Assembly (NCBI GenBank): GCA_000222855.1 | Contig: GL995228.1 | Span: forward strand, 7,404 to 18,636 | Direction: 5' to 3' | DNA from: Succinivibrionaceae bacterium WG-1 | GTDB lineage: Bacteria > Pseudomonadota > Gammaproteobacteria > Enterobacterales > Succinivibrionaceae | DNA: 11,233 bases | Shown: one piece after another, positions 1 through 10,329 of the stretch | How positions within the stretch are numbered: the stretch's first letter is position 1 | How the letters are laid out: the number at the start of each line of letters is the position of its first letter | The notes under the pieces: generated by a model | What the model saw: only the letters and a program-made list of their open reading frames with translations | Told to the model about the DNA's origin: nothing | The model's database searches: none | Program-made: the position numbers and the translations under genes

Positions 1-584
1 ACCATCAAATAAATAAGCTACAAAATATGTTATTAAATAAATTACCTTAATTACCTTACTAAAATTGTACTACAACAATAAGATAAAACTACTATTTTAA
101 CGATTGGTATCCCAATTATAATCAAATATCAACAAAAAAATGTCACATAAAGTTCTAATATATAAAACTAACACATGTCATATATATAATAAATTTATCA
201 CTATATTTAATACTAGATTTGTATTTAGTTTTTAAATTTTATTTTTTTATTCTTAGATTTTAGAGAATTTTAGTTTTTTATAGCAAAATTTATTTATATT
301 TTGGCAATCATTTTATAATAATTCAACATGTTGATTATTTGTTGATTTATTGTATTTGTTTTTGTTTAAACAATAAAAAAACTGACTATTTTTGTAGCAA
401 ATTCACATTTTTACTTACATTCGACTATTTTTTGTACAATATATCACATATTAAAATTTTGATTTTTCTTTTTTTAATTAAAGTGTATACTTATATATGA
501 ATCTAATTAGCCTGTAAAAAGATTCGACTTCATAATAAAAAAAGGATGATTTATAGATTGAGAGTTTATAAATACAACCTAAGA

Positions 585-3622: not shown

Positions 3623-5017
3623 TTAATTTGCTTGTTTATCTAAAGTTCTTTTTGAAAGAGTTGAACGAAGATGATTAAAATAAATAGCAGTTTCTTCATA
3701 AACATGCTTTCTTAAGAAGAATAAAGCAATTAAATTAGGGAATGCCATTAAACCATTAAAGATATCAGCAAGAATCCATACTACATCTAATGTCATGAAA
3801 GATGCACTTGCAACTATTGCAATATAGATAACACGATAAGCATAGATTACTTTTGTACCAAATAAGTACACAACACTACTTTCAGCGTAATAATTCCAAC
3901 CAATTGTAGTAGTAAAAGCAAAAAGTAATAAACCAATGTTTATTACATATATGCCCCAAGATTCACCTAAAGTATCAGAGAATGCTTTAGTAGTAATAGC
4001 AGCGCCATTTAATCCTTCAATGTTCCAAGTATCTGTTAAAACAATAACTAAACCTGTAAGCATACAAACAATGATGGTATCTAAAAATGTACCAGTCATG
4101 TTTACAAGACCTTGTTCGGCAGCATATTTAGTTTTTGCAGTAGCAGCTGCAATTGGTGCAGAACCTAAGCCTGCTTCATTTGAGAAAATACCACGAGCCA
4201 CCCCAAAACGTAATGCCATTAAAATACCAACACCTGTAGCGCCACCAACACATGCATCAAAACTAAATGCTGAACTTACAATTTGATATATTGCATTAGG
4301 TAACAAATCAATCTTCATAATAATAATGAAGAGACAGCCAACAATATAGAATACTGCCATTACAGGAATTACTTTGGCACTAAAGGCAGAAATACTTTTT
4401 AAACCACCTAAAGTTACTAAACCAACTAAAGCTGTAATGATGGCACAAGAACCAACAGAACTCATACCAAACATAAGTTCATTAGCTTGTACCATAGAGT
4501 TAATTTGACAGTATGTACCAATACCAAAGCAACCTGCACCAATTGTAAATAACGCAAATAATGCTGCTAAAGATTTACTGTGTAATCCATTTTTTATATA
4601 GTACATTGGACCACCACAGAATCTTCCTTTGGCGTCCTTTTCACGATATTTTACAGCAAGTAGACATTCTGCATATTTAGTTGCCATACCAAAGAAAGCT
4701 GCAACAAACATCCAAAATAAGGCACCAGGTCCACCCATATGAACAGCTGTTGCCACCCCTACGATATTACCAGTACCAATAGTACTAGCAAGAGCAGTAC
4801 AAAGAGCAGCAAAACTTGTGATTTCACCATCTTTACCCTTTTCATCTATATGAGGAGTAAATACAAGTTTTAAAGCTTTTGGAAGATATGACACTTGTAA
4901 GAATTTAAGTGACACAGTGAGCATAATACCAATACAAAGAAGTAAAACTAGTAAAGGTGCGCCCCAAATATAACCATCAATCGTATCTAATATTTGGCTT
5001 AACGAATCCATAATCAT
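3623..5017 (-). CDS. Sodium:alanine (amino acid) symporter, AGCS family. The probable start is the internal Met at 5015-5017 (MIMDSLSQILD...); the ORF track extends to 5056.
   Basis: Polytopic membrane protein with the AGCS signature region SFAALCTALASTIGTGNIVGVATA. AAGGAT lies 5 nt upstream of the ATG at 5017, whereas there is no ribosome-binding site before the ATG at 5056. Confidence 0.8.
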   Translation of the reverse strand: MIMDSLSQILDTIDGYIWGAPLLVLLLCIGIMLTVSLKFLQVSYLPKALKLVFTPHIDEKGKDGEITSFAALCTALASTIGTGNIVGVATAVHMGGPGALFWMFVAAFFGMATKYAECLLAVKYREKDAKGRFCGGPMYYIKNGLHSKSLAALFALFTIGAGCFGIGTYCQINSMVQANELMFGMSSVGSCAIITALVGLVTLGGLKSISAFSAKVIPVMAVFYIVGCLFIIIMKIDLLPNAIYQIVSSAFSFDACVGGATGVGILMALRFGVARGIFSNEAGLGSAPIAAATAKTKYAAEQGLVNMTGTFLDTIIVCMLTGLVIVLTDTWNIEGLNGAAITTKAFSDTLGESWGIYVINIGLLLFAFTTTIGWNYYAESSVVYLFGTKVIYAYRVIYIAIVASASFMTLDVVWILADIFNGLMAFPNLIALFFLRKHVYEETAIYFNHLRSTLSKRTLDKQAN

Positions 5018-5120
5018 TGTATCCTTGGAATATTTAATAATCTTCACATTAAACACATATTGTAAAAATCATTAAACCAATAAAAGCTTATACCAATCGC
5101 TCAACTTAGACATTTTTATA

Positions 5121-5170
5121 AAAAAAAAAATTATTCAGAATGCATAAAACATTCTGAATAAATCTTTTTA
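5121..5170. terminator. Hairpin with a perfect 12-bp stem TTATTCAGAATG (5131-5142) / CATTCTGAATAA (5150-5161), 7-nt loop, preceded by A10 and followed by TCTTTTT. Bidirectional terminator/insulator between the DGR unit and the symporter gene.
   Basis: Read directly from the sequence. Lies in a 524-bp intergenic region, upstream of the symporter start and about 420 nt downstream of the RT stop. Confidence 0.5.
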
Positions 5171-5501
5171 GATTTATTTGATTTACCAAAATTGACTGAT
5201 TTTTTGATTTAATTAGAAAAAAATAATGATAATTATTTGGTAATAAAATCAAAAAAATTTGATTATTTATATAAGACTTCTTGGAAATAATAACTTTTAA
5301 AACAATTTAAAAATAAATGTAAAAATTATTTTTCTAAGTACCAAATTAAAACTTTTTTCTTTAGTACTTTAAAGTTAAGGATATTCTTCTACTTCTGTAC
5401 AGAAGACATTATGTTTTAATTTGAAAAATTAAATAAAATAACGGCGCTATTGTACAATAAATTAACAACTTTTTAAAATTTAATAACAAGAAAACAGTTA
5501 G

Positions 5502-5580: not shown

Positions 5581-6165
5581 TTAATGTCTAGTTAATATAA
5601 GTTTGTTTAAATATTTAGAAAATAACTTGTAACAATTACCATAAAGCAAATATCCTTTATAACTCATAACAACTTGTCTGACATCTTCATACGACATTTT
5701 TCTTTCTGTGTAATTTTTGCTTAAAAATTTAAATTTGTTTTTAAATCTAGTTTTTGTTTGTCGCTTTACATATTTTAGGATCTTTCCTGTTTCTGTTAAA
5801 ATTATTCTAAATCCTAAAAATGTTACCCCGTTTTTTATTGGTATTATTTGAGTTTTACTGTTCAATAATAATTTTTCATCTTGAGATAACTTATTCTTCA
5901 ACAACGCTAAAGCTGTTTGAAGATACGATTTATCATGATGAATTATCAAAAAATCATCCATATATCTTGTATAATATTTAAATCCCATAGCTTCTTTTAA
6001 AAATCTATCCATGGAATCAAGATAATAAATGGCAAACCACTGACTTGTTTGATTCCCCATTGGTAAACCTTTATTAGGAGCAACTTCATAACTGTCAATT
6101 ATATCGTGAAGTATTTTTAATACTTTATTATCTAAATTTAACCTTTTAGTTTTTCTTTCAAAACA
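5581..6165 (-). CDS. DGR reverse transcriptase, C-terminal part (motifs 4-7: GLPMGNQTSQWFAIYYL, YTRYMDDFLII, thumb). The open frame extends upstream of the annotated Met to 6165, reading ...KTKRLNLDNKVLKILHDIIDSYEVAPNKGLPMGNQTSQ...
   Basis: The ORF track gives 5581-6060. My manual translation of 6061-6165 in the same frame is open and encodes RT-like sequence. YMDD is the catalytic YxDD box, and the SQ-containing motif 4 is diagnostic of DGR RTs rather than group II intron RTs (which have QG). Confidence 0.8.
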   Translation of the reverse strand, partial: CFERKTKRLNLDNKVLKILHDIIDSYEVAPNKGLPMGNQTSQWFAIYYLDSMDRFLKEAMGFKYYTRYMDDFLIIHHDKSYLQTALALLKNKLSQDEKLLLNSKTQIIPIKNGVTFLGFRIILTETGKILKYVKRQTKTRFKNKFKFLSKNYTERKMSYEDVRQVVMSYKGYLLYGNCYKLFSKYLNKLILTRH

Positions 6166-6635
6166 TCATGATCTATTGAATCAAAAAATTTTTTTATATC
6201 ACATTTAAGAAAATACCCATTATTTTGATATTTAGAATAAAATTTTCTTAAAAAATAAGTTAATCTATCTAATGAAAAATGTAACCCTTTTCCTATTCTA
6301 CAAGCACAGTTATCATAAATCAGTTTTTTATCAATCACAGGGGCTAAGATTTCATCACATAAACAATGTTGAACAACTCTATCTTGATAATATAAAGCAT
6401 GTATCAATCTTTTTTTAGGTTCAAAAACATAAAAAGAATAATAACCAGAAATTCTATACGTTCCGTTTAACAATTGTTCCCTAAGTCTTGTTAAATTAAA
6501 AGCTAATTGCATTTCAAAAGAAATTACTTCTATTTTATTATTCTTACTTCTCTTTGCTTTTCTATGAGCTTTATATAGATTTGAAAAATCTGTTAATTTA
6601 TCAAAATCAGATAAAGTAGTTGCAGCATTATTCAT
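6138..6635 (-). CDS. DGR reverse transcriptase, N-terminal part (NLYKAHRKAKRSK..., FEPKKRLIHALYYQDRVVQH, CRIGKG, YFLKCDIKKFFDSIDH = RT motifs 1-3). It ends at a stop that overlaps the downstream RT frame by 28 nt, so the RT gene is frameshifted.
   Basis: 165-aa ORF. Motif content and order match DGR RTs (Brt-like). The stop at 6138-6140 is in a different frame from the continuing RT frame (6165 to 5581). Confidence 0.8.
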   Translation of the reverse strand: MNNAATTLSDFDKLTDFSNLYKAHRKAKRSKNNKIEVISFEMQLAFNLTRLREQLLNGTYRISGYYSFYVFEPKKRLIHALYYQDRVVQHCLCDEILAPVIDKKLIYDNCACRIGKGLHFSLDRLTYFLRKFYSKYQNNGYFLKCDIKKFFDSIDHDVLKEKLKG

Positions 6636-6825
6636 AAAAAATGACTTTATAAGCGTAGTAGGCCGATAGGAGTATAAACTCTAGGTTATATAAACTAAAA
6701 AGCGTATATAACCCTACCGGCTAATATTTACCTTTTTATCTAGGAAGGAAATGATTCCTTTAGTCTCGACTCTGTTTAAATCTACTTAGAATTAAAATCA
6801 CGTTTTAGAGAACTTTGAAACTAAG
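6636..6825 (-). ncRNA. Candidate DGR spacer region between TR and RT, probably part of the structured DGR RNA that primes cDNA synthesis.
   Basis: Non-coding 190 nt lying directly between the TR 3' end and the RT start. Contains a short hairpin AAGGAA-atga-TTCCTT (6745-6760) and a direct repeat AAAGCGTA (6650-6657, 6700-6707). The functional assignment is by analogy to the Bordetella phage DGR only. Confidence 0.35.
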
Positions 6826-6939
6826 GCGGGACGAACACCAACATTTGTATTGTTAACGTTGTTGTTGTTGATGTTACCATCGTTGTTTACATTCTGTACA
6901 TTGTTATTGTTACTCCCAGGCGAGCGCAACCAATAATAA
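6826..6939 (-). repeat. DGR template repeat (TR), 114 bp. On the coding strand it encodes YYWLRSPGSNNNNVQNVNNDGNINNNNVNNTNVGVRPA, rich in AAC/AAT codons.
   Basis: Identical to 7477-7590 except at 16 positions. Every one is T on the + strand (A on the coding strand) in this copy, while the other copy has A, G or C. No indels (offset exactly 651 bp). Confidence 0.92.
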
Positions 6940-6987: not shown

Positions 6988-7380
6988 TTATTGCCATCTC
7001 CTTCTATCAGAATTCATCCATGCTCCTAATAAATTCTGACAGTCTGTTGTCAATTTAGCAATCTGACAATATTGCTTCATGAGTATAGCATTCATTGTCA
7101 ATGCAAGTTCTGCGTAATAAGCTAACAATTTTATATTTGTCATAGCTTCTCTTTGTAATGACAATCTAAAATTTAAAGCATTAAAATCTCCCCTATTTAC
7201 AAAAACATCATTTGCTTTATATATTTCCCCTATAATATCCAATGCTAAATTTTGCAATCTTGTAACAATTGTAAATCTAAATTGTTTTGGAGATTTTTGA
7301 GTAACTGTGATTATATAACTACAAAGTTCCTTAGCTTTAGTTACGATTGATAATTCTGATTGTGGTCTACAATTGTTCAT
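6988..7380 (-). CDS. avd: DGR accessory variability determinant (Avd-like four-helix-bundle protein).
   Basis: 130 aa, placed between VR and TR as in canonical DGRs. The pattern ...LSIVTKAKELCSYIITVTQKSPKQFRFTIVTRLQNLALDIIGEIYKAN... and the basic C-terminus LGAWMNSDRRRWQ resemble bAvd / S23-associated four-helix-bundle proteins. No obvious SD; the ATG directly follows the hairpin U-tract. Confidence 0.75.
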   Translation of the reverse strand: MNNCRPQSELSIVTKAKELCSYIITVTQKSPKQFRFTIVTRLQNLALDIIGEIYKANDVFVNRGDFNALNFRLSLQREAMTNIKLLAYYAELALTMNAILMKQYCQIAKLTTDCQNLLGAWMNSDRRRWQ

Positions 7381-7457: not shown

Positions 7458-10043
7458 TTACAGATTTATCCATAAAGCGGGACGAACACCAACAAGTGTA
7501 CTGAGAACGTAGTTGTAGTAGATGATACCATCGTTGTGGACACTCTGCACAAAGTTATTGTAACTCCCAGGCGAGCGCAACCAATAATAACCGTAACCAT
7601 TATCAGTATATAAATCTAATTCTGCTACATAATTTGAAAATTTTGCCCTTTTATCTTTCAAATATTTTTGTACTTCAGTATCATCTAATAACCAAATTTT
7701 ATCATTAGAAACATTATCATCTCTTGTAACAATTTTAGATTGCACAATTTGTTTTTGCTCTGTTTTAGAAAAGGAATTTTCTAAAAAAATATTATTTAAC
7801 CATTTCCTAATGCTTGAATCAGACCATTTATTACTACTAGTATTACCTCTAAAAGGTTTTACATCTAAAATAATATCACTTAAAAGTAAAGCTTTGCCAT
7901 CTTTTACATCTAAAACTCTCCACATTATTGGAGACTTTTTTTCTAAGCTTTCTTGCCAATATTGTCCAAATTTAACAACATCATTAATCTTAATATTTTT
8001 ATTTATACTATTACGAAAATCATTTGCCTGTAAGACATTTAGTGCTTCTAAAGAATCCTCATGAACTTCGTTAAATCGCTTATACAAAAATAATGATTTT
8101 TGTTTTAAATTTTGAGTATATTCATTTAAGCTATTTTTATCTTTAAAAACATACTCATCAACAATTATAAGATTATTAACTATATGCTTATACTCATTCA
8201 AATATTCTTTATCTTTATTATCTTGTGGATTTAATGACTTTATATCATTAAAACATTTTTGTTTAAACTCATATAGCTCTTCTAATCTATTGCTATTGTA
8301 TAATTTTGCAACATATTGATAAAACTCTTGATAACTTCTAAAACAATAATTTCCTTTATCAAAAACTAGTGTTGTCTTTATAACACTATCTAGTTGTTCA
8401 GATTTATTTCCAACAAAAATGTTCATTATATTCGTTAAATCATCTTTTACATTGCTAATAAAAGAAACATACGCAACAACATCTTTATCATATAATTCGT
8501 TACAAAAATTCAGAAAATCTTGTACTGATTTAAAAGATTTTTTGTTTATAACAAAATCTTCCCTACCTGTTAAAGCATAACCTAATCTTAAAGCTTGATA
8601 AGTATCATCAATATTTTGTTCCGATATTAATTTCTTTTGTAATTCAAGAACCTCAACATAATTTTGACTTAAATCCTTGTCTAAAACTTTATTTTTACAA
8701 TAATTTATCAAAAATGCATTAAGTAATTTTTTGGCACTTTTTACAATTTTATCTTGTCCTTTACTACCTAACTTGGCTTCGTTTATTAAAGCATTACCAT
8801 AATCGTTTAAGTCTGTAAAAACATATCCTTGCCAATAAATTTTTGTAAGAGTTGGTTCTAACTGATATAAAAGCTTTTGATATCTAAAATCGTCATTAGG
8901 ATTATTTTGTAGCACCTCCATTGCTTGTCTACAAAATTCTGTTTCTTTTTCTTTATTATTGATATCGTAATGTCTTTCGAGTAAGCCTCGACCTACTTCT
9001 TTTTTACCAAGTTCCCAATTTGTTCCTAAAGCATCAATTAAATCATAATTTGAAGTATATATTGTGCCATTAAACTTGTATGGAATTGAAGTTTGCTTTG
9101 AATTTGATGATGCACTTGCCAAACTTGAATTAAAATCCCCTGGAATTACTTGTTCTTCACCTTTTAACCATTTTTGAACTTCGGTATAAGTCCAACGTTT
9201 ATTAGGATTATTAGCTTCATTACGATTTGAAATATCTTTATAGGTTAAACCTAAAATTAAATTCTTTAAGTCTTGAGGAAAATCTACCGCAAATGGAATT
9301 TTTTGAATAGAAGCAAGACCAGCTAATTGCGAACTACTTATATTACTATTTTGAAAAGGAGTAAAACCTGTGAATAATTCATAAATCATTATGCCTAATG
9401 CATAATAATCAGTCTCTTTTGTAAAACTATTATTAAAGGCTTCTGGTGCTAAATAAGTTGGAGTCATACCTGTCTGAGTAAACACAACAGTATTACCATT
9501 GGTAACAGAACTTATACCAAAATCAATTATTACTAAATTGCCTTCATTATCTATCATTACATTGTCAGGTTTTAAATCCTTATGTAAGATATCTAATTGA
9601 TGAATATTATTTAATCCTGTTACTATTTGCGGAATAATTTGTTCTTTTAATTCTTGTTCAGAAAATGTGCCACAATTTTGCAAGTAACTTCTTAAAGAAC
9701 CATTAGTAAAATAAGGCATTACTACATATGTAAATCCCAATTCTTCTGAATAATAAGATACAGGAGCAACATACTGAGGTTTTGAATTAAAAATTTTTGC
9801 AATAACTTCAGCTTTTAAGGCGTCTTTACGACGATAAAGTTTAACAATTTGTTCTGAATTATCATTTATATCAATGGCTTTATATAAATCAGATTCACTT
9901 GAATACGTATTTAATTTCTCTGTAACATTAAATCGATTATTTAATGTTCTGCCTAAAAGATTAGGAATATCTGCATTATTTTGAGAGTTTGAATTTATTT
10001 TTGTAGCTAAATTTTTTAACTTATTTATTAACGTAGTAGCCAT
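7458..10043 (-). CDS. DGR target protein. N-terminal Hanks-type Ser/Thr protein kinase domain, roughly 400-aa alpha-helical-looking middle region, and C-terminal variable domain (probably C-type-lectin/FGE-like fold) carrying the VR. No signal peptide or TM segment, so predicted cytoplasmic.
   Basis: 861 aa. Kinase motifs are visible: VKLY (beta3 Lys), HKDLKPDN (catalytic loop, non-RD), IIDFGIS (DFG), TYLAPE (APE). The glycine-rich loop is degenerate. The C-terminal ~140 aa (KFGQYWQ...WLRSPG...VGVRPALWINL) ends with the VR. An AGGT ribosome-binding site lies 8 nt before the ATG. Confidence 0.8.
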   Translation of the reverse strand: MATTLINKLKNLATKINSNSQNNADIPNLLGRTLNNRFNVTEKLNTYSSESDLYKAIDINDNSEQIVKLYRRKDALKAEVIAKIFNSKPQYVAPVSYYSEELGFTYVVMPYFTNGSLRSYLQNCGTFSEQELKEQIIPQIVTGLNNIHQLDILHKDLKPDNVMIDNEGNLVIIDFGISSVTNGNTVVFTQTGMTPTYLAPEAFNNSFTKETDYYALGIMIYELFTGFTPFQNSNISSSQLAGLASIQKIPFAVDFPQDLKNLILGLTYKDISNRNEANNPNKRWTYTEVQKWLKGEEQVIPGDFNSSLASASSNSKQTSIPYKFNGTIYTSNYDLIDALGTNWELGKKEVGRGLLERHYDINNKEKETEFCRQAMEVLQNNPNDDFRYQKLLYQLEPTLTKIYWQGYVFTDLNDYGNALINEAKLGSKGQDKIVKSAKKLLNAFLINYCKNKVLDKDLSQNYVEVLELQKKLISEQNIDDTYQALRLGYALTGREDFVINKKSFKSVQDFLNFCNELYDKDVVAYVSFISNVKDDLTNIMNIFVGNKSEQLDSVIKTTLVFDKGNYCFRSYQEFYQYVAKLYNSNRLEELYEFKQKCFNDIKSLNPQDNKDKEYLNEYKHIVNNLIIVDEYVFKDKNSLNEYTQNLKQKSLFLYKRFNEVHEDSLEALNVLQANDFRNSINKNIKINDVVKFGQYWQESLEKKSPIMWRVLDVKDGKALLLSDIILDVKPFRGNTSSNKWSDSSIRKWLNNIFLENSFSKTEQKQIVQSKIVTRDDNVSNDKIWLLDDTEVQKYLKDKRAKFSNYVAELDLYTDNGYGYYWLRSPGSYNNFVQSVHNDGIIYYNYVLSTLVGVRPALWINL
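7477..7590 (-). repeat. DGR variable repeat (VR), the last 114 bp of the target gene (ends 17 nt before the stop). Encodes YYWLRSPGSYNNFVQSVHNDGIIYYNYVLSTLVGVRPA.
   Basis: Relative to the TR, 13 codons differ. Eleven are Asn-to-X changes (Y,F,S,H,I,Y,Y,Y,L,S,L) and two are silent third-position changes, all at TR adenines. The 3' 18 nt (coding strand TGTTGGTGTTCGTCCCGC) are GC-rich and identical in TR and VR, as expected for an IMH-like element. Confidence 0.92.
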
Positions 10044-10298: not shown

Positions 10299-10329
10299 AT
10301 TTGATTAAATTGAAAGTTTTACTTCAATA

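Follow-up and report, generated by a model that had tools for sequence, protein, structure and literature searches.

The reverse transcriptase (RT) gene of the DGR in this DNA is split between two reading frames, and the split is in all likelihood a homopolymer-length error of sequencing or assembly, in which one A was dropped from a short run. The DGR lies in what we call the window, the whole 11.2-kb stretch of DNA that was analysed. The true gene would encode a single 351-aa DGR RT whose mRNA would read ...CUA AAA AGG UUA AAU... (L K R L N) at the critical site, and the assembly, in giving four A's for five at 6144-6147, would bring in an apparent stop three codons on. The remaining cassette, a kinase-DUF6273 target with its VR, Avd and the TR, is intact and would be expected to serve ordinary DGR function, in which reverse transcription of the TR RNA would introduce errors specifically at adenines and the resulting cDNA would take the place of the VR. 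A sequence-only reading of the same DNA had left it open whether the RT was inactivated, still made through recoding or simply mis-sequenced; the DGR anatomy that it described stood, and of its three readings the evidence from the assembled sequences compared here strongly favours the trivial one, mis-sequencing.

The window is AT-rich (~27% GC), has relatives among sequences from the wallaby foregut and encodes outer-membrane beta-barrel proteins. On its minus strand it carries a complete DGR cassette in the order target(VR)-avd-TR-RT. The target gene (7458..10043, minus strand) encodes an 861-aa protein (UniParc UPI00025560E9) with a Pfam Pkinase match (9.5e-39) and a C-terminal DUF6273 match (2.4e-23), and the VR (7473..7590, minus strand) is situated inside the 3' end of this gene and ends 13 nt ahead of its stop codon (7458-7460). 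Avd, a 130-aa protein encoded at 6988..7380 on the minus strand, matches the Pfam bAvd family with E = 2.3e-8 and 34.9 bits, a bAvd-like score under the Pfam cutoff of 40; its gene is located between the target and the TR, the canonical DGR position. Comparison of the TR (6822..6939, minus strand) with the VR gave mismatches at 17 of 118 positions, 16 of which are TR adenines, the same number of divergent sites that had been counted from the sequence alone; the 17th is a C>T change at the 3' end that is common to all three VRs examined (the window's and those of two further loci described below). The VR 3' boundary is GC-rich and IMH-like, with an invariant GTTGGTGTTCGTCCCGC followed by this C/T difference between TR and VR. 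The RT bears the features of the DGR clade, namely an RVT_1 domain, GNQTSQ (motif 4, xGNxxSQ) and YMDD (YxDD), and has 1334 homologs at E<=1e-30; in a scan of genome contigs with the RT, the best relative among the matches listed was 41% identical. A search of the window against Rfam returned no matches. The DGR is real and of a known kind, and only the frame of its RT departs from the ordinary.

The first of the two RT frames (6138..6635, minus strand) is a 165-aa ORF that holds motifs 1-3 and matches the intact 351-aa RT of the comparison loci exactly over residues 1-164; read from 6635 to 6138, its translation ends in ...FFDSIDHDVLKEKLKG (...VLKEKLKG), with the TAA at 6140..6138. The second (5581..6165, minus strand) is in the -1 frame, is open from 6165, after a TGA at 6168..6166, to a stop at 5583..5581, and has its first ATG at 6060. 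It reads CFERKTKRLNLDNKVLKILHDIIDSYEVAPNKGLPMGNQTSQ... and continues the RT as ...RLNLDNKVLKILHDIIDSYEVAPNKGLPMGNQTSQ..., holds motifs 4-7 (GNQTSQ, YMDD) and, from RLNLD on, equals residues 165-351 of the intact RT. The RVT_1 match is divided between the two ORFs such that its halves abut exactly, profile positions 8-91 falling in the first and 92-205 in the second; the two pieces are therefore contiguous halves of one domain. The translations and the domain halves thus bear out the description of a split RT given in the sequence-only reading, and the A5 and A4 runs that it had noted in the overlap of the frames are located at 6154..6150 and 6147..6144.

To find the missing base, the window was compared with intact alleles of the same locus. 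A search with the Avd protein recovered it at 100% identity from two further public assemblies, a 43-kb contig (L001) of GCA_965351355.1, which is a 2025 MAG, and ADGC01006584 (L002) of GCA_000205705.1; the ADGC records are those of the Tammar wallaby foregut metagenome (PMC3818352). Each of these loci encodes one 351-aa RT, in contrast to the broken frame that the window sequence shows. Within the 1.1-kb region of the RT, three differences in all separate the window from both loci (DNA >99.7% identical): a synonymous TAT/TAC (T/C) difference; a T7 run shortened to T6 immediately ahead of the start codon of the RT (6636..6641, minus strand), a contraction private to the window; and one A fewer in CTAAAAAGG, which gives CTAAAAGG in the window. 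The DNA alignment, the indel list and a three-way branch assignment all place the last of these at 6144..6147 (minus strand), where an A4 run in the window corresponds to A5 in L001 and L002. The other run in the overlap, an A5 (GAAAAAC) at 6150..6154 (minus strand), reads the same in the intact alleles, and the frame change therefore does not lie there. Alignment to intact RTs, which had been proposed as the way of locating the exact base, accordingly pointed to the A4 run and not to the A5 run, and the proposed look at orthologous loci returned A5 and a single ORF in both cases. Restoring the A yields a protein of 351 aa, as had been anticipated in the claim that a one-base indel would give a contiguous RT of ~350 aa; when the first ORF minus its last Gly was joined to the second ORF from RLNLD, the product differed from the L001 RT at 0 of 351 residues. 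What the sequence-only reading had named as its refutation, one more A that restores a single ORF over 5581-6635, was seen at two near-identical loci, in a comparison made at the level of related loci. Set against these two intact alleles, the split comes down to a shortage of exactly one base and is not a chance pattern.

The wider RT family has the same continuous form. Each of the best 120 of the 1334 homologs is a single protein of 337-459 aa, and 20 sampled from these 120 (52-58% identical) aligned without a gap across the junction. The A4 allele was absent from the other assemblies and was seen only in the window's own source contig, three alleles being known; scans of metagenome and viral sequences with a pattern that allowed A4 or A4+N returned the wallaby contig (A5) only and nothing viral.

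The lost A was one of several such losses in the window. Over 11.2 kb the window is 99.07% identical to L001, and the two differ by six 1-nt indels in A/T runs, all six of which are contractions in the window (6/6, p = 0.03). In addition to the run within the RT gene and the one just upstream of it, the private contractions (all minus strand, with runs given in the RT sense) comprise two in the spacer between the RT and the symporter gene, a T7 run at 5217..5223 and a T11 run at 5120..5130 that are T8 and T12, respectively, in L001 and L002, and two in non-coding DNA, an A7 run at 469..475 and an A4 run at 237..240 that are A8 and A5, respectively, in L001 and in L085, a Logan contig from run DRR848609 that served as a third independent assembly. 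The longer run was thus found in L001 at six of six sites, in L002 at the four sites that it covers and in L085 at the other two.

When changes were assigned to branches over the 6.5 kb common to the window, L001 and L002, with the VR excluded, the substitutions numbered 3 on the window branch, 35 on that of L001 and 1 on that of L002; the window branch also had 4 run contractions and the L002 branch 1 indel, and the L001 branch was free of run indels. A Fisher test of 4:3 for the window versus 0:35 for L001 gave p = 3e-4, a comparison that loses strength if the clustered L001 substitutions are recombination imports; with these treated as imports, the ratios became 4:2 versus 0:2 and p = 0.43. 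Expressed as run indels per substitutions, the window had 6 per 5 and the sister lineages 0 per ~48. The window also carries five private substitutions, four of them in genes and three of those four synonymous. It is a genuinely distinct strain, and some of its private differences are therefore real. The sole non-synonymous one, at 4848 (codon 70 of the Na+/alanine symporter, counted from GTG), gives ATA (Ile) in the window versus AAA (Lys) in both other assemblies and could be real or a base error.

The decisive evidence for an artefact is the fragmentation of neighbouring genes in the assembly from which the window was taken. Exact-sequence matching placed all of the window's proteins, the 861-aa target and the two RT fragments among them, on one 173,608-bp NCBI contig, and we surveyed 90%-identity clusters of nine genes flanking the window in L001 and in a further locus, L083, counting also an adjoining 115,074-bp contig that we infer to belong to the same assembly. 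Five of these nine genes, intact in L001, are fragmented on one or the other contig: an Opp-type ABC ATPase (333 aa, reduced to pieces of 167 and 162 aa), a substrate-binding protein (799 to 545 aa), OppC (303 to 263 aa), a LacI regulator (344 to 243 aa) and VanY (231 to 172 aa). For four fragments, the part read out of frame (tail or head) could be recreated from the L001 gene by changing one base in a 7-nt run of A or T, and the breaks mapped in this way were A7>A6, A7>A6, A7>A8 and T7>T6 (three contractions and one expansion). The ATPase and VanY are full length in the wallaby metagenome as well, and the source strain is otherwise >99.9% identical to the strain in which the broken genes are intact. 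Altogether there were at least 10 run-length discrepancies in ~23 kb (nine contractions and one expansion), and six of 16 genes were broken. Six broken genes fit an assembly prone to homopolymer error and not a living gut bacterium.

Two results speak directly to the artefact explanation: six A/T-run contractions are private to the window and are contradicted by independent assemblies, and many unrelated genes of the source assembly are frameshifted at runs. Since the same kind of run-length fault recurs in many neighbouring genes, the RT break is almost certainly an artefact. The sequencing platform may have been one prone to homopolymer error, e.g., pyrosequencing; this is suggested by the UniParc identifier of the target protein, which we take to mark an early-2010s deposit. 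A nanopore-type signature, which the six contractions out of six in the window brought to mind, was set aside on the grounds of that identifier and of the one expansion among the neighbouring genes. Uncorrected homopolymer indels that frameshift genes and raise pseudogene counts are a documented assembly artefact (Homopolish, PMC8011154), and the case described here resembles it in that one-base changes in A/T runs are private to one assembly and frameshift genes that are intact in relatives. The documented artefact is one of long-read or pyrosequencing assemblies; the present case is known from assembled sequence and comprises nine contractions together with one expansion.

The comparison assemblies have breaks of their own. 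At ~5774 of L002 (equivalent to window position 7713) a G>GG change splits the target into 779 and 85 aa, and in L086, at the equivalent of window position 10320, an A4>A3 change closely follows the 3' end of the OMP gene. The wallaby data are old too, and these contigs probably carry the same class of run-length error.

An alternative to the artefact is that a very recent slipped-strand deletion (A5>A4) inactivated the RT in the source strain, in which case the 165-aa N-terminal fragment and a C-terminal fragment with no start codon close by would form no active enzyme and the VR would be frozen at its present state, with TR, Avd and target still intact. The frameshift is, after all, present in the sequence as given, the window comes from a distinct strain whose private substitutions are mostly synonymous, and an RT is dispensable, such that a frameshift would be tolerated in the only broken gene of the seven in the window. 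Selection also predicts that run contractions should collect outside genes, and five of the six are non-coding; from the non-coding per-run rates, however, ~2.7 coding contractions would be expected and one was observed (P(<=1) ~0.25, by arithmetic on run counts), so that the coding/non-coding spread does not discriminate between error and selection. It also counts against the artefact that consensus errors are less to be expected in a run as short as this one (A5>A4) and that one broken gene of seven fits real variation filtered by selection. A real deletion would have to be extremely recent since the RT has no other amino-acid change, and the A4 allele occurs in no other assembly found. Moreover, the same strain would have to have lost transporter, regulator and peptidase genes (the five of nine neighbours that are broken here yet intact in near-identical strains), which is implausible biology for a free-living gut bacterium, and it would have to have gained run indels at a ratio for which the sister lineages, with none per ~48 substitutions against the window's six per five, offer no precedent. 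We therefore consider a real deletion unlikely. Were it true, the frameshift would be an ordinary recent loss-of-function mutation; the question of a 'frozen VR' is without basis unless the four A's are real.

Much less probable still is that the frameshift is real and bypassed, either by a -1 slip of tRNA-Lys on A_AAA_G or by an RNA polymerase that adds an A. In the slip scheme CUA AAA GGU would be read as A AAA and then AGG, giving a low level of full-length RT, and the bypass would throttle DGR activity or serve as an on/off phase switch. The geometry permits it: a -1 shift at the AAA codon (6146..6144) gives the exact wild-type LKEKLK-RLNLD, a stop codon stands two codons downstream, and the junction peptide expected from a -1 product of the A4 allele is LKEKLKRLNLDNK. 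The site is nonetheless poorly equipped. The zero frame reads CUA AAA GGU UAA and lacks an X_XXY_YYZ heptamer, A_AAA_GGU permitting single P-site re-pairing only; no Shine-Dalgarno-like (GGAGG-like) element was found upstream; and the 121 nt downstream fold with an MFE of -11.6 kcal/mol versus a shuffle mean of -12.8 (z = +0.48), i.e., no structure. In programmed -1 frameshifting (dnaX, A_AAA_AAG; IS transposases) the protein is likewise restored by slippage of -1 at an A-rich site, but the RT site is without the full heptamer, the structure, the Shine-Dalgarno-like element and the conservation in orthologs. The frameshift is absent from L001, from L002 and from the best 120 of 1334 homologs, and run faults throughout the assembly account for it without recoding. 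Efficient transcriptional slippage or phase variation needs ~7-9 A's or more, and contingency loci have tracts of ~7-8 nt or more, so that a run of 4-5 A's falls short; when the phase switch was examined the tract was found only as A5 (intact) or A4 (here), the two lengths not recurring across samples. That the A4 is real and the RT is made through rare tRNA-Lys slippage, or that the tract toggles between A4 and A5, is accordingly a reading to which we give hardly any credence; if it were true, the diversifier would run at a very low or switchable level and the kinase-coupled variable protein would be fixed.

With the RT break read as a homopolymer-length error, the cassette conforms to canonical DGRs (Bordetella phage BPP-1 brt/avd/TR/mtd; surveys, e.g., PMC5758913) in its gene order, its GNQTSQ/YMDD RT, its bAvd-like accessory protein, its 118-nt TR/VR pair with mismatches at TR adenines, its conserved GC-rich 3' end and the position of the VR at the target C-terminus. 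It differs from them in the apparent RT frameshift alone, which is missing from L001 and L002, and in nothing mechanistic. For DGR surveys this means that the cassette should be counted as intact. It also calls for caution, for a frameshifted RT in an A-rich tract tempts one to stories of recoding or of a frozen VR, when here it is most probably a problem of assembly quality, as comparison with near-identical loci and with the neighbouring genes of the source assembly brought out.

The three loci also bear on DGR activity. The window, L001 and L002 have one and the same TR sequence and Avd, yet carry three VRs (window, 7473-7590; L001, 9800-9908; L002, 5897-6014) that differ only at TR-adenine positions, and outside the VR only ~4 substitutions in 6.5 kb separate the window from L002. 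Three VRs on near-identical flanks indicate that mutagenic homing was very recent in this population, in which the DGR is evidently active; that three near-identical genomes carry three VRs likewise makes it probable that the cassette itself is active. In addition, when set beside the TR and the other VRs, the L001 VR has a 9-nt in-frame deletion at ~9838, equivalent to window 7543-7551, which leaves its target at 858 versus 861 aa and is unusual for a retrohoming product.

Within the remainder of the target gene the substitutions that separate the window from L001 are tightly clustered, with 21 sites at 8406-8679 and 12 sites at 7627-7849, and the kilobases to either side show hardly any difference, a pattern suggestive of mosaicism or of recombination tracts in the target outside its VR.

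The nearest parallel to the target itself comes from cyanobacterial DGR variable proteins, in which an N-terminal serine kinase is joined to a C-terminal CLec domain (PMC7517822). Both combine a Ser/Thr kinase with a diversified C-terminal ligand-binding module; the present target differs in that its host is AT-rich (~27% GC) and has OMP genes, and in that its C-terminal module is annotated as DUF6273. A kinase-DUF6273 target in an AT-rich gut bacterium would add a further DGR-diversified signalling protein to a class that has so far been mostly cyanobacterial.

Two further features of the window are recorded. At 26-48 it reads TAAGGTAATTAAGGTAATT where L085 has a shorter and different sequence, and the alignment degrades in the first 50 bases; this may be a small tandem duplication, or the 173.6-kb source contig may end here. 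At 2001-2500, in the 3' end of an SPFH/Band-7 zinc-ribbon gene, GC content peaks at 0.45 versus ~0.27 elsewhere, and many of the window-versus-L001 substitutions also fall at 2194-2425.
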